Assembly: GCA_965248445.1 (NCBI GenBank)
Contig: CBDFJG010000004.1
Location: forward strand, 1,760,001-1,824,000
DNA: 64,000 nt
Reading direction: 5' to 3'
DNA from: Planctomycetota bacterium
Lineage (GTDB): Bacteria > Planctomycetota > JAJSAM01 > JAJVHW01
Position numbers: made by a program. This document shows positions 39,001 to 45,000 of this stretch, piece by piece (position 1 is the first letter of the stretch; the number at the start of each line of letters is the position of its first letter).

Positions 39001-42000
39001 AGAGCGACGGCTCTGCGGACTCGAGCCGATCCGCGTCGCCCCACGGGTCGGAGCCGACGCGCTTGCCGAGCGGCGCCAGGAGCGCGGCGTCGCGCTTGGC
39101 GCTCACCGGCGGGCGGGCGCGGTTGTACGCGATCCGCACGAGGCCGAGGAGCGCGGGGCGATAGACGATCTGGCCCGTGCCCCGACCGGCGGACAAGAAG
39201 TACTCCGGGACGCCGGGCGGGACGATGGGACGCGCTCTCTTCGCCGCCTTCTTCGGCGGCGCCGCCGCTGCGACTGCCGGCGCGGCGGCCACGGCCGCCT
39301 TGGCGACCGAGACCCTCTTGGGCTTCGCGCGGGCCTTGCGCGTCTTCATCAGCCCGCGGATCTGATCCCGCGTCAGCGGACCGGCCAGGTAGCTCAGCGC
39401 CCAGCGCGTGTGGAACATCACCGGCCGGTCCTCGTGCACGTTGTTCATCAGGAACACGCGCGAACCGAGGCCGGCGAGGGTCGCTTCCATCTTGCCGCGG
39501 TCGAACGCCTTGCCCGCTGCCGCGGAAGCGCCCTCGAGGCCCTCGATGACACGCATCTTGTCACGCTCCGTCTGCAGCCGGCCGAGGAACCACGTGCCGG
39601 CGTTCGACAGCGCCTTGTAGTCGAGATCGACCGGGTTCTGCGTCGCGAGCACCACACCGAGTCCGTACGCACGGGCCTGCTTCAGCAGCGTCAGCATCGG
39701 GAGCTTCGACGGCGGCTTGGCCGACGGCGGCAAGAAGCCGAAGACCTCGTCCATGTAGAGCAGCGCACGCAGCGAGCTGGTGCCCCGCTGCGAGCGCATC
39801 CACGACACGATCTCGTTGAGGAGGATCGTCACGAAGAACATGCGCTCGGAGTCACCGAGGTGCGCGATCGACATGACCGAGACACGCGCCTTGCCGTCGG
39901 CGGTGCGCAGCAGCTTGCCGACGTCGAGCGGCTCGCCCTTCATCCACGTCTCGAAGCCCGGCGACGCGAGCAGGTTGTTCAGCGTCATCGACAGCTCGAA
40001 CCGGTCCTCCGGCGAGAAGAACGAGTCGAGCGGGAGCACACCGATCGACTCGAACGGCGGGTTCTGGATGGCGACGATCAGCCCGGGCAGGTCGAGGCTC
40101 TCACCGGCGGTCCACTTCTTGTGGAGGATGTTCGAGAGCAGGATGTGCTCACGGCTGCGGATCGGATCGGCATCGACACCGAGCAACGCGAGCAAGCCCG
40201 AGACCGTTGCCTGCACGCGGTCGCGCATCGCATCCGTGTCGTCGCGCAGCGACTCGGACGGCGCATCGAACGAACCGAGCACCGAGACGGGCACACCCGC
40301 TGTGCTGCCGGGCGTGTAGATCGTGACCTCCGCCGCATCGCGGAACTTCTGGATACGCGAGGGCGACTGATTCCACTTGCCGAGCCCCCACTTCCAGAGT
40401 TCGGCGCGGTCCTTCGCGTACTCGGCCACGCTCATGCCCTTGCGAGATGCCGTGTCGGGGTCGACCCACGGCTCGAAGTCGTCGGGCGAGAGCTTCGGGA
40501 ACGCGAGCAGCAGGTTGCCGAGGTCGCCCTTGGGATCGATGCAGATCGCGGGGATGCCGTCGATCGCGGCCTCTTCCAGGAGCGTCACGCAGAGACCCGT
40601 CTTGCCGCTGCCCGTCATGCCGACGCAGACGGCGTGCGTCGTGAGGTCCTTCGCGTCGTAAAGCAGCGGCTGGTCTTCGTGCGTGCCCGTCTCGGGATCG
40701 TGCATCCCGCCGAGATAGAACACACCCAGCTTCTCGTAGTCAGGCCCTGCACTCATCGCGTCGCTCCAGCTATTCCACCCACCGAGCCGCGCACTCTATC
40801 GCGCGTGCGAAGGGCGGAGCGAGCGACGCTCAGGCGGTCGTGGCCGGCGCGAGGCCGTCGAGCGCGGCGCGGACACGCTCGGCGAGCGACATCGGCGTGA
40901 ACGGCTTGGGAAGGAGGTCGCCCTCCCGGCCCTGGAGCTCGATCGTCTGGTCGGAGTAGCCGGACATGAAGAGAACCCGCAGGTCGGCGCGGCGGCCGCG
41001 CAGGTCCTCGGCTACGTCGACGCCGGAGATGCCGGGCAGACTCACGTCGGTGAGCAAGAGGTCGACGTCCGCGAGAGAGCCCTGGGCCAGCGAGAGGGCC
41101 TCTTCACCGTCCTCGGCCGCGAGGACCGTGTATCCGGCGCCCTCGAGGAGCAACGAAGCGAGCTTCCGCACCATGGGCTCGTCCTCGACGAGGAGGATCG
41201 TCTCGGTAGCTGTGCAGGCTGGCATGGGTTCGTCCTCGGGCGCGAAGGGCGTTCCCCGCCGGGGGCGCTCTTCAGCCTGAGGATCGGTCGTTCCGCGTCC
41301 CGCTTTACCGCGGGACGCGGCCGACGACGTAGAGCGCCCTGACGCGAGCCCAGGAGAGCCTGCGGCCGCGGGGCAGCTCCCGCGGATCGAGGATGATCTC
41401 GGGCTCCTGGCCGCGCCCCGGCCCCTGTCCTCCCCCGGGAATCGGGTCGAGCTCGACGCCGAGGAACGCGCAGCCCCGCTCGACGAGCAGGTGACGGGCC
41501 AGCACGTGCGGGTCGAAGTCCCCGGCGAGGGCTCCGGGCCCCGCCTTCCGCGGCTCCATCCGGCGGATGCTCGGCCCCGCGGGGTCGAACAGCTCGCGGA
41601 AGACCGCGTTCAGCCCGCGGACGAACACGTTCTGCACGATGAAGTGGTGCCGCACTCGCTCGCTCGACACGATCGTGAACCGCTCCCGTCCCGGCCCGCC
41701 GGTCATCTCATCCAGGCGGCGCTCGAGCAGGTCTCCCTTGACGGGGTCCTGGATCATCGCGAGCACGCGTGTGTGCGGCGGGTACGGCAACTGCCCCGAC
41801 GCCTCCAGACGCGCCAGTTGCAGGCACTCGAGCGCTACGACGCCGTCGAGCGCGTCCGCGCCCCGCGTGCGCGGCAGGAACAGGACGACGTCCACCGTCG
41901 CCAGGTTGATGACGGGGTCGTGCACGAGACGCGTCGAGTCGCTCCAGTCCGCGACAGCGACGCGGACGCGCGCGGACCCCGACTCGCTCCGCACTTCGAG

Positions 42001-45000
42001 AAGCGTGTGATCCGCGGTCGACGACTCCTCGAACGTGACGCCGGGCAGCGAGCGGGTGAACGCGGAACGTACGTCGCGAAGCAGCACGGGGACGCGCGAC
42101 TCGTCCCGCACGAGCACATCGAAACCGACGTCGCCATAGAAGACCGTCACGTCCGTCAGGACGCGCGGGATGCGACGGCTGTCCCCGAGCACGAGCACGC
42201 GCCGAACATCGTGACCACTCGGGACGAGTTCCAGTCCGTCGAACGCCTGAGCATCCCCCGCCGGCGCGCTGTGCGGATGTGCGACGAACGAGCGTCCGAA
42301 GTCCCGCACGTCGTTCCAGCGCAGGGAGACGCCGATCACGCCGCGAACGGCGTCTGCGCGCATGCGCCCGGCGTCGTCGACCATATCCGGCGGCACGGAG
42401 TCCGGTGTTGGCGCGAGCAGCACTCGGAGATCGTCGAACTCGGCATCCGGGTCGCCGGGCGGCGCGATGAACACCCCGAGCATCCAGACGTTGTGATCGC
42501 GCGCGGCGCGGTCGTGCAGGGCCGACAGGTCGAGTGAGGTTCCGGCGGCGCCCGAGCCCAGGAACCGGGCCCGCTCAGCGGAATCGAACACGTACGAGTA
42601 GATCTCGCAGCCATCCGAGGTGAGGAGCTGGCGGTACAGCCGGTAGATGCCGGCGTTGGCCATGTTCTGGGCGATGTAGTTCCCGACGAACGACCCGGAG
42701 CCGATCACGTGGGTGCGCGCACCGCCGGCGGAGCGCGCGGCATCCAGGCTGCTCTCGTGCTCCAGGTCCGCGTACAGGTGCACTCTCGGATTGCGGTCGC
42801 GCGTCGCGAGGATCGCCGCCACCACCGCGGCGTCGGGGTCCCCCGGCTGGGTGCCGAGAATGACCACGCGCTTCGCTCGTGAGACCGCTACGCGGTCCAG
42901 GTCCTCGGCGCGCACGGGGTCGCCATGCCGGTACGAGAACGCGTCGATCGCATCGGCAACGCTGTCCGGCGGACGCTCCGTCGGACCGAGCACCGCTCCG
43001 CGGAACGCGCGCAGGTTCTTGCGGTAGATCCCCGCGAACTCGGCCAGCAGGAAGTGGCTGTGCTCGCCGAGCCCGAGGATGACGGTGTGGTCGCGCGATT
43101 GCACCGGGCGCGTTCGCGAACGGATCATGAGTTCCTCGATGGCACTCGTGCCGATGCCGACGAGGAACGAGAACAGCAGCAACCCCGCGAGCGTCAGCGC
43201 GACGGACACACCGACGACCCAGATGTGGTTCGGTTCCCGCCACAGGTTGCCGGGATCCTCGACCTGCATGAAGCTCCACCAGAAGCGGCCGAGGAAGTCG
43301 CTGGGGAAGCCGTCGGGTCCCGGCGCCTCGCCGAGTACGGCGTGCAGCACGACCGCGGCCGCGAGGCTCAGCAAGAACCCGGTGACGAGGACGAACGCGA
43401 CCTGGAAGCGGCGCTCGCGCGACATGAGGATGCGCCAGAGGTCGCGCATCATGTCGCCCCAGTAGCCGAGCAGGAGCACCAGTCGCACGAGGCGGATCAG
43501 CCGCACGTAGCGGAACCCGAACATGCGTTGCAGAGGCAGGAACGACAGCACCGCGATCAGATCGAGCACGAGCAGCACCGTCTCGCCGAAGGTCGCCTGG
43601 CCTGCGCGTACGTGTCTCACGAAGACCGCGAGACGAACGAGGAACTCGAGCCCGAAGATCCCCAGGAACCACCAGTCGAAGATGCCCTGGCGGCCTCTCA
43701 AGAACTCGAGGCCGTCGATGTCCGCGAACGCGTCGAGCGGGAGGACCGAGAGCAGGATCAGGAGCGAGAGCAGGACGCGCACGAAGTACGTCGAGAGCAC
43801 GCGCTCGGCGCCCTCGATCGTGCGCGCCCAGCGCGACGCCCGGCCCGACCCGCGACTTCCGTCTCCCGTCCTCTATCTCGGCAGGAGGCTACGGAAGACG
43901 CCCGGGCAGTGCGTGCTATCCTATCTGCGGAGCGGAGCACACCGTCGACCATGGCGAACAACACTCACCGACTGACGACGCTCGTGGTGGCGCTGGCGGC
44001 TCTACTCGCGACCGCGCCGGGTACGTCCGCCGAGCGGCTCCTGGAGTTCGATGCACGCGTGACCATGCGTCACGCGCCGACCGGCACCACCGGTCGGGTG
44101 CGTCTCTCGGGCACCCTGCGTGACAACCGTCCGGCGACGTTCGATCCGGCCGCCGACGATGTGAGCGTCCGCGTCGGTGACACGACGATCTTTGCGCTTC
44201 CGCCTGCCGCGGAGCGCGGGAAAGTGCGCCGCGTGCGGCGGGGTAAGTGGCGCTATCGCGGGCCGCGCAGTGAGGGTCGCCCACGGCTGGTGGTCAACCT
44301 GAGGCGAGCGACGGTCAAGTTGCGCGTGCGCAGAGCGGATCTCAACGCGTTCGACCGTGACGCGCACACCCCCACCGATGTCGTCGTCGATCTCCGCCGC
44401 ATGACGTATCGATCCAGCGGAGAGATGTTCCCCGCGCGGCGCGGCCTCGCGTTCGCAGCGTCCGGCGGGGTGCCAGGTCTTCCACCGACCTTCGTGTTCG
44501 CCGGCAGGCTCGGCCTCTCGTTCCAGCAACTCGAAGCGAAGCAATCGATCGTCATCCGGACTGCGGCGGATTGGGCCGCCTTGTTCGAGTCGATACCGGA
44601 TCAACCACCGCAGATCGACTTCGCCGAGGACATGGTCCTCGTCTCTCCGCCCGGCTGCGCAGGCCGGGGATCCGAGTTGCCGGTCGTGAGTCACAACCAA
44701 TGGTTCGGGCTCAACGTGCGGTGGCGCCACACGGCGGACTCGTGCGTCGCTCCGCTCGAATTGCCATCGCCGCCCCCGAGCGACGTCCTCGCCGTGTGGG
44801 TGCGTGCGTGTCCCGGCACGATCAACTTCCAGATCTCGCCCAGCAACGTGATCGAGGTGAACAGATGAATCGCACGCGCATCCTGTTCGCAGCATTGGCC
44901 GCGGCGTTGCTCGCGCTGCCGGCAACGGCGGCCGACGGGCCGCAACTGACCGTCGACAAGCTCGTGATCCGCGCGCCGGCGCCGAAGGGCGATTCCGCGG

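Follow-up and report, generated by a model that had tools for sequence, protein, structure and literature searches.

A bacterial family of putative cation channels joining a voltage-sensor domain to a CASTOR-type pore and RCK ring

The gene P0002 (g04509) of a Planctomycetota bacterium encodes in one chain an S1–S4 voltage-sensor domain, a CASTOR-type pore and a tandem RCK gating ring, and belongs to a conserved family forming a clade of its own. We propose that the protein is a cation channel that passes Ca2+ and responds both to voltage and to cytosolic ions, a reading with about an even chance of being correct. Taken separately, permeation of Ca2+ through a pore of this type seems likely, and voltage gating a little less so. 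A literature search, with subscription journals mostly outside its reach, returned no description of a sensor combined with a CASTOR-type pore and ring, and the family is apparently new to the literature. It was sampled as 242 representatives of 50% clusters at E ≤ 1e-30. Among the 150 matches listed, 115 were full-length (at least 780 aa), with an identity to P0002 of only 20–50%; all counts over 115 given below refer to these listed representatives. The features of the gene are located as follows in the window, the whole 64,000-nucleotide stretch of DNA that was analysed.

41305..43800, minus strand: channel gene P0002, S1–S4, pore, RCK1 and RCK2, 831 aa
43801..43872, minus strand: possible extra N-terminus, 24 in-frame codons 5' of the GTG
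43462..43800, minus strand: voltage-sensor domain S1–S4, residues 1–113, with S2 F49/E52/R56, S3 D80 and S4 R97/R100/R103/R106
43426..43458, minus strand: S4–S5 linker, residues 115–125, helical in both models
43297..43332, minus strand: outer turret between S5 and the pore helix, residues 157–168, site of the family Dx[DN]x[DN]G loop
43243..43296, minus strand: pore helix and filter, residues 169–186, V-E-D182-P-G-N185, D182 corresponding to LjCASTOR D265
43111..43224, minus strand: S6 inner helix, residues 193–230, G206 in 115/115 and G215 in 113/115
42271..43095, minus strand: RCK1, CASTOR-type, residues 236–510, E399 (42604–42606) corresponding to LjCASTOR E493
41314..42207, minus strand: RCK2, residues 532–829, D652 acidic in 115/115

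The reading frame was intact from 43800 to 41305, without internal stops. Seven residues precede the S1 Arg in P0002, compared to a median of 23 in the 115 representatives. The 24 codons upstream of the GTG are open, contain no ATG, GTG or TTG, and end in WARTIEGAER, which matches the pre-S1 helix motif of the family. It is therefore possible that the true N-terminus lies further upstream and uses a non-standard start codon. Two AlphaFold models of the full protein (a D-x-G type, see below) were made as monomers, the second with a deeper alignment. Their pLDDT values of 90.4 and 92.7 and their six membrane helices agreed with the preliminary description, which had reported six helices and a pLDDT of 90. 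Both contained two Rossmann/RCK units and placed the pore helix at residues 169–181. Atlas matches for residues 1–235 were all below 0.9 and served as leads only.

The assignment of S1–S4 as a voltage-sensor domain, already made in the preliminary description, was supported by several observations. Pfam Ion_trans matched residues 10–223 of P0002 (26.7 bits for a cut-off of 25, E 3.9e-6) and was found in 29 of the 39 proteins scanned. The best PDB match of the sensor profile was KCNQ3 (E 0.0016), and stand-alone bacterial six-helix channels scored 28–31 bits on this profile. The family shows the voltage-sensor pattern, S2 F-x-x-E-x-x-x-R, the S3 Asp and an S4 Arg at every third residue. The sensor residues previously said to be invariant (F49, E52, D80, R103 and R106) were so in 61 aligned homologs, as were R56 and R100, and the S4 motif, first written RxxRxxR, was present as [RK]xxRxxR in 102 of the 115 representatives. 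Conservation reached 0.62 in S4 versus 0.29–0.46 in parts of the ring. The linker is of fixed length, with a spacing of 24 residues between R106 and E129 at the 5th, 50th and 95th percentiles. The suggestion that the extra helices of plant CASTOR are a remnant sensor was unsupported, as all 79 plant N-termini compared (PEC left out) scored below 2 bits on the sensor profile and none had the S4 pattern.

In the monomer model, residues 1–231 superposed whole on Kv2.1, Shaker, Kv4 and KCNQ1 (Z 11–12.3, rmsd 4.1–5.1 Å, 199–227 residues), whereas Slo1 superposed from residue 120 or so onwards, or with an rmsd of 13–18 Å when the sensor was included. The sensor–pore packing of Slo channels is non-swapped. 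The "BK-channel architecture" initially attributed to P0002 thus holds only for the order of the domains, and the modelled membrane part fits Kv/KCNQ and not Slo1. P0002 differs from Kv1, Kv2, Kv4 and KCNQ in its filter and in the added cytosolic RCK ring.

In CNG channels and in Slo2, S1–S4 moves little gating charge and serves as a structural module. The P0002 family could likewise consist of ligand-gated CASTOR-type channels, an alternative that we consider rather unlikely. In its favour are position 109, mostly hydrophobic and devoid of a K5/R6-type charge, the outer S2 acid, present in only 40 of the 115 representatives, and the frequent absence of R97 and R100 from members with the S-x-D filter described below. 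In these members position 100 is basic in 20 of 31 (82 of 84 in the D-x-G type) and S4 carries 2.8 charges, compared to about four (mean 3.7) in the D-x-G type. Two-helix CASTOR constructs also function without a sensor (PMC6697748). A module of this kind is harder to reconcile with the retention, at 20–50% identity, of F49 (115/115), E52 (111), D80 (114), R103 (114) and R106 (115), R100 being kept in 100, or with the preservation of a fixed-length helical S4–S5 linker and a Kv-like packing.

The pore had been described as carrying D-x-G-N in place of the K+ signature TVGYG; D-x-G-N was found in 82 of the 115 representatives and T[VIL]G[YF]G in none. The plant filter was now aligned, VEDPGN of P0002 lying over VADSGN of plant CASTOR. 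D182 aligns with the essential filter residue D265 of LjCASTOR, whose filter is given as AD265S(A)GNHA (Kim et al., PMC6697748). LjCASTOR has a PCa/PNa of about 30, and its activity is abolished by D265N and by E493Q (PMC6697748). Judged by sequence, the pores failing the strict pattern used earlier are a second filter type, S-x-D. The two types were exactly complementary (D-x-G in 84, S-x-D in 31): an Asp occupied position 182 or 184 in all 115 proteins, never both and never neither. The S-x-D members have two acids, E181 and D184, in 31 cases out of 31. This filter probably arose twice. Pore counts from loci L001–L080 and L123–L167 were left out of the evidence because these loci had been picked by pore patterns. 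The preliminary description had counted 35 of 107 pores outside its pattern, and the second type had been missed.

Six helices and an acidic filter are also found in the bacterial channels CavMr and BacNav. The CavMr filter is TLEGWVD, and an RCK is unmentioned in the CavMr paper. In BacNav/CavMr the filter motif T-L-E-x-W goes together with a second pore helix; its Trp was found in 0 of the 115 representatives. Equating the S-x-D Asp with the BacNav filter Glu was considered and dropped, as the alignment puts the Asp one residue farther outward than that Glu.

The turret provided a further feature, missed in the preliminary description. A Dx[DN]x[DN]G motif was present there in 58 of the 115 representatives (shuffles: mean 0.9, maximum 6 in 1000), with only eight matches in the 95,662 other residues and none in 33 proteins outside the family. 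Motifs of this type are known Ca2+ binders, mostly extracytoplasmic (PMC3123361). The periplasmic Dx[DN]xDG loop of about half of the family is a probable Ca2+ site close to the mouth of the pore. The P0002 copy, reading APGPDG, is degenerate and on this criterion has lost the motif.

It seems improbable that the family represents voltage-dependent, poorly selective Na+/K+ channels that control membrane potential or osmotic state, Ca2+ being no more than a blocker or regulator. In favour of this reading, LjCASTOR passes Na+ (220 pS), K+ conduction has been described for PEC1/2, and Ca2+ inhibits the NavPp-like Na+ channels. Against it stand the filter Asp, present in 115/115 and at the CASTOR D265 position in 84, and the E181 and D184 pair of the S-x-D members.

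The CASTOR/DMI1-like character first reported for the pore and the tandem RCK ring was confirmed. The profile–profile match to CASTOR-type proteins extended from S5 to the C-terminus (P=100, E 7e-53, 590 columns). The ring structure gave Z scores of 30.6 with DMI1 and 30.0 with CASTOR (rmsd 3.3 Å, about 485 residues aligned) versus 23.5 with Slo1 and 22.6 with GsuK. Foldseek again ranked the LjCASTOR and MtDMI1 rings at the top (E 3e-20 to 8e-19, TM of target 0.74–0.79), followed by Slo1 and Slo2.2. E399 corresponds to E493, the essential Ca2+ ligand of LjCASTOR, and is acidic in 114 of the 115 representatives, although this conservation may be partly structural, since the surrounding G-x-E-x-Y is also present in Slo2.2. 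H348 and S350 of P0002 stand where LjCASTOR has D442 and D444. Of the other CASTOR ligands, D442 was found in 63 of the 115, D444 in 29, D553 in 7 and D554 in 3, the alignment near 553 being less sure. Identifying E399 with a BK Ca2+ ligand was abandoned, as Kim et al. (PMC6697748) state that the sites differ.

The family shares with CASTOR/POLLUX/DMI1 (LjCASTOR 6o6j, MtDMI1 7vm8), including the bacterial two-helix "CASTOR/POLLUX-related putative ion channel" proteins, the pore helix, the D-x-G-N filter, the tandem RCK fold and the Ca(II) glutamate. It adds S1–S4, the S-x-D filter type and the turret motif. By alignment, the Ca(III) ligands and the majority of those of Ca(I) seem to be missing from it, and Pfam Castor_Poll_mid (PF06241) matched none of the eight members scanned, whereas the controls P0253, P0216 and P0391 scored 98–153 bits. 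Among bacterial K+ channels, GsuK has a tandem RCK but two helices (PMC3510474), and Kch has six helices but one RCK (PMC2234077). With Slo1/BK and Slo2 the likeness lies in the single chain, the order sensor–pore–RCK1–RCK2 and the ring fold (Z 19–23.5); P0002 differs by the absence of the K+ signature and of S0, by its Kv-like membrane packing in the model and by its CASTOR-type ring, and the current of the family is predicted to be inward Ca2+/Na+, not outward K+. A direct line of descent from this family to animal Slo/BK, or orthology between the two, is most improbable: Foldseek aligns Slo1 and Slo2.2 across 940–1000 columns and some members match Pfam Slo-like_RCK and BK_channel_a, but TVGYG is absent from all 115 representatives, the ring profile gives E 2e-31 for CASTOR against 2e-11 or weaker for Slo, the sensor-to-pore geometry is that of Kv/KCNQ, and an acidic run like the Ca2+ bowl is not visible in the P0002 RCK2 sequence.

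We propose the following model for P0002 as a Ca2+-permeable channel. The protein, a CASTOR/POLLUX/DMI1 superfamily member equipped with a sensor of Kv type, would by homology assemble as a homotetramer that is not K+-selective, and its filter would be formed by four D182 carboxylates. At a negative resting potential S4 would keep the gate closed via the helical S4–S5 linker, and depolarisation would favour opening. Ca2+ (with Na+/K+) at the E399 site of RCK1 would provide a second, cytosolic input; we infer both the direction of gating and this role of E399. The outcome would be a regenerative entry of Ca2+/Na+, opposite in sign to the K+ efflux of BK.

A tree of 41 rows was built with single-RCK outgroups, Slo and PEC being left out. 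The channel family was a clade (support 100/99), and it grouped with the CASTOR-types against the outgroups at 98/93. Plant and bacterial two-helix CASTORs lay next to this well-supported clade, whose position as sister to the remaining CASTOR-types received 92/81 only. P0391 also combines a sensor with a CASTOR ring. It differs by a BacNav-like filter (TGEGW), which needs an insertion to align with the pore of the family, by its Castor_Poll_mid match and by a sensor reaching only 8 bits on the family profile. It fell outside the family in the tree; as the AU test does not reject a single clade (p 0.245), the argument for a separate origin of this fusion is that its sensor and filter are unlike those of the family.

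The family had been presented as unnamed and exceeding 100 clusters, in agreement with the 242 representatives and with the absence of an NCBIfam family for all 17 proteins given. The carriers had been listed as Planctomycetota, Acidobacteriota and others. Both phyla were present, but Myxococcota were the commonest: a hand count of record titles over the loci listed (80 of 112) gave 46 Myxococcota, 9 Acidobacteriota and 3 Planctomycetota. The distribution in the phylum of P0002 was patchy, as noted before, with six full-length matches in 301 genomes. Cultured carriers are Plesiocystis pacifica (two paralogs), Nannocystis radixulma and Enhygromyxa salina. The D-x-G members that carry the turret motif include proteins of Enhygromyxa salina and Plesiocystis pacifica. 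No gene neighbour was common to the 80 loci and the window, the largest neighbour cluster covering 15 myxobacterial loci, so that a function cannot be assigned from an operon. The ATPase gene neighbouring P0002 shows an apparent frameshift. A promoter scan was uninformative (no sigma-70 site; two terminator-like matches for 0.7 expected), and the sequencing runs listed were four of DNA type, all from one study, and none of RNA.

PDB searches returned CASTOR and DMI1 as soluble rings only, and according to Kim et al. (PMC6697748) explaining the Ca2+ selectivity of CASTOR needs a pore structure. The present family makes this question testable, because it is compact and bacterial, with the same filter Asp, a predicted voltage switch and a natural pair of D-x-G and S-x-D filters. 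A wider picture is possible but on balance doubtful. In it, the family would be an independent kind of voltage-gated Ca2+ channel, the third in prokaryotes, with cytosolic Ca2+ as a further gating signal and periplasmic Ca2+ as a modulator; it would act as a BK-like coincidence detector of reversed sign and be able to produce regenerative Ca2+ spikes in myxobacteria and their relatives. The family would be sister to all CASTORs, in which the sensor may have been lost, and the filter Asp would have moved two positions outward twice, with a shift in S4 charge. For bacteria, a 2020 report described CavMr as the first native case of voltage-dependent Ca2+ entry; the channel proposed here would, if true, be a new route to such entry.

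The channel gene occupied the minus strand of the window, with the following features around it.

43800-41305, minus strand: channel ORF, 831 aa, intact
41225-40830, minus strand: stand-alone response-regulator receiver gene, starting 80 bp downstream of the channel
47510-46914, minus strand: msrB (SelR)
40756-38657 and 39044-38301, minus strand: HerA/DUF87-like ATPase ORF, apparently carried on in a second frame that encodes a coiled-coil tail
29414-30841 and 33679-35106, plus strand: two near-identical 475-aa ORFs around two genes of a lower-GC stretch
35331-37364, plus strand: multiheme cytochrome c gene, after which a small membrane protein is encoded

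The receiver gene was matched beside the channel at one other locus only (L061), and msrB was also present in the flanks of three related loci (L001, L016, L026). The frame change in the ATPase ORF may be a frameshift or an assembly error, and the 475-aa pair presumably resembles IS1380-type transposases. No neighbour was common to the whole family.

The channel is real, intact and conserved. Its protein gave a Pfam Ion_trans match above the cut-off (residues 10-223) and weak RCK matches. The protein was modelled twice (pLDDT 90.4 and 92.7), and both predictions contained helices S1-S4, a helical linker (115-125), S5, the pore helix (169-181), S6 and two RCK units. Upstream of the GTG, 24 further in-frame codons were open and encoded a pre-S1 helix known from homologs, yet contained no standard start codon, so that the N-terminus is uncertain. 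NCBIfam had no family name for any of the 17 members submitted, and the Enhygromyxa salina member was annotated merely as "ion transporter".

A word-seeded search gave 68 matches, 61 of which were built into a profile. Run against 1.84 billion sequences, the profile found 242 representatives at E ≤ 1e-30, of which 150 were listed; 115 of these reached at least 780 aa, and the 35 shorter ones were set aside as fragments before every count out of 115. A hand count by record title, covering 80 of 112 loci, gave 46 Myxococcota, 9 Acidobacteriota and 3 Planctomycetota. Cultured carriers were Plesiocystis pacifica, Nannocystis radixulma and E. salina. The distribution in the window's phylum, previously described as patchy, was indeed so, with six full-length matches in 301 genomes; the channel was present in three of seven other genomes of the window's taxonomic family and in at least 17 of 301 from the phylum of P. 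pacifica. This last species carried two D-x-G paralogs (L117 and L120/L122), the second ending at a contig edge. The ESM Atlas contained two unnamed clusters near the window's protein, together with a Synergistota-rich one that had Ion_trans and Castor_Poll_mid.

The sensor residues were each kept in at least 100 of the 115 listed representatives (F49 in 115, E52 in 111, R56 in 111, D80 in 114, R100 in 100, R103 in 114, R106 in 115). The best PDB match of a sensor-only profile, 29 of whose 39 rows matched Ion_trans, was KCNQ3 (E 0.0016). With a wider sensor profile, five stand-alone bacterial six-helix channels reached 28-31 bits, three single-RCK channels 9-13 bits and P0391, a channel with a CASTOR ring and a TGEGW filter, 8 bits; all 79 plant CASTOR N-termini stayed below 2 bits. 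Three bacterial six-helix single-RCK channels (L093, L094, L096) combined an Arg-rich S4 with another non-K+ filter (ATEP/AGEP). Residues 1-231 of the model superposed as one body on Kv2.1, Shaker, Kv4, Kv1.2 and KCNQ1 (rmsd 4.1-5.1 Å), whereas the Slo1 alignment either began near residue 120 or, with the sensor included, had an rmsd of 13-18 Å. Domain swapping is a feature of Kv channels but not of Slo; the fit of this monomer model thus suggests a Kv-like coupling of sensor and pore. The preliminary description had proposed a BK architecture: the domain order agrees, but the membrane part is Kv-like in the model. Position 109 was hydrophobic in most members and the outer S2 acid was present in 40 of the 115 listed, both of which count against strong voltage sensing. 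A channel opened by ligand alone, with a passive sensor, would suit these two features less awkwardly than the retained S4 arginines, and we consider it unlikely, though the strongest of the alternatives.

In structure, the ring aligned best with DMI1 and CASTOR (Z 30.6 and 30.0, rmsd 3.3 Å over about 485 residues), compared with 23.5 for Slo1 and 22.6 for GsuK, a two-helix tandem-RCK K+ channel (PMC3510474); the family profile gave E 2e-31 for CASTOR and 2e-11 for Slo2.2. The LjCASTOR Ca2+ ligand E493 corresponds to E399, acidic in 114 of the 115 listed, although the surrounding G-x-E-x-Y motif is also present in Slo2.2; four single-RCK outgroups had Q or T there. Other ligands were kept less often (D442 in 63 of the 115, D444 in 29, D553 in 7, D554 in 3), the site I positions of the window's protein being His and Ser. 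In CASTOR, site I is reported to inhibit, D442A to be leaky at low Ca2+ and E493Q to be silent, the authors speculating that the E493 cluster activates (PMC6697748).

When 84 family members were compared with 29 CASTOR-type proteins, the latter gathered via a bacterial two-helix homolog, the profile-profile match extended from S5 to the end (P=100, E 6.9e-53, 590 columns) and paired VEDPGN with VADSGN. The LjCASTOR filter is given as AD265S(A)GNHA, with PCa/PNa of about 30 and no current in D265N (Kim et al., PMC6697748), in agreement with the plant-like filter of the preliminary description; by alignment, D182 is the counterpart of D265. TVGYG was absent from all 115 listed representatives, as previously described. 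Positions 182/184, equivalent to the second T and first G of TTVGYG in K+ channel pores, read D/G in 84 members and S/D in all of the remaining 31. The earlier D-x-G-N pattern does fail in a subset, but this subset is, judging by its residues, a second filter type, all 31 members reading E-S-x-D-N. S-x-D required two changes on a tree with the filter columns removed, and under the same removal an AU test rejected a single S-x-D clade (p 0.012). A basic residue at 100 was found in 20/31 S-x-D and 82/84 D-x-G members, and R112 in 29/31 and 19/84; kin not being independent, this association counts as at most two events. Among 17 Myxococcota carriers sampled, three had S-x-D and none both types. 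A MarR-type regulator gene lay directly upstream of the channel at 12 of 45 metagenome loci fetched by the S-x-D profile (L125:198-935, L132:4253-4897 and ten more), which may be plain synteny. A poorly selective monovalent channel appears improbable, the filter aspartate present in all 115 listed speaking against it.

Of the 115 listed, 58 carried Dx[DN]x[DN]G in the outer S5-pore helix loop (D-x-G 51/84, S-x-D 7/31), 36 times as a 12-residue EF-hand-like loop. Turrets shuffled in 1000 rounds averaged 0.9 matches and never exceeded 6; elsewhere in the same proteins there were 8 in 95,662 residues, and 33 proteins outside the family had none. The motif was present in 51 of 62 close homologs and degenerate in the window's protein. 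According to Rigden et al. (PMC3123361), it binds Ca2+, tends to occur at periplasmic and surface sites and is readily gained. The loop may be structural or regulatory, and its sequence suggests Ca2+ binding.

In a 41-row tree of pore and RCK1, free of Slo, GsuK and PEC and with the filter removed (25 of 66 alignment rows, including two long branches, left out), the family formed a clade (100/99). Its union with CASTOR-type proteins against single-RCK outgroups had support of 98/93; the sister position was not firm (92/81). P0391 fell outside the family, and an AU test did not reject one clade (p 0.245). CASTOR-like proteins annotated as from Rotaria rotifers (P0348, P0350-P0353) grouped loosely with bacterial two-helix forms, possibly through transfer or contamination. 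The CASTOR/DMI1-like pore and ring of the preliminary description stand, and the family is probably the sister of CASTOR/POLLUX, not a strict member. Descent as a BK orthologue is a very improbable reading that has the domain layout for it and the less similar ring, the missing TVGYG and the modelled membrane packing against it. Six-helix channels with RCK were already known, e.g. Kch (PMC2234077). The accessible text on CavMr, a native bacterial Cav (PMC7041947), mentions neither RCK nor CASTOR, CASTOR is likewise absent from that of a 2026 survey of small prokaryotic genomes (10.64898/2026.03.26.714534), and the PEC paper is concerned with plants and algae (PMC8644588). No account of a CASTOR-type channel with a voltage sensor turned up in the literature covered, which included few subscription journals.

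The family would work like Kv in its membrane part, and its pore and ring would act as those of CASTOR do. Its anatomy, homology and conservation are established, whereas conduction, gating and assembly are inferred. We propose, at about even chances, a Ca2+-passing tetramer gated by depolarisation and ion binding at E399. In this model, the four filter aspartates would pass Ca2+, and probably Na+; S4 would keep the channel shut at resting potential, and it would open on depolarisation combined with the binding of ions at E399. The outcome would be positive feedback, unlike that of BK.
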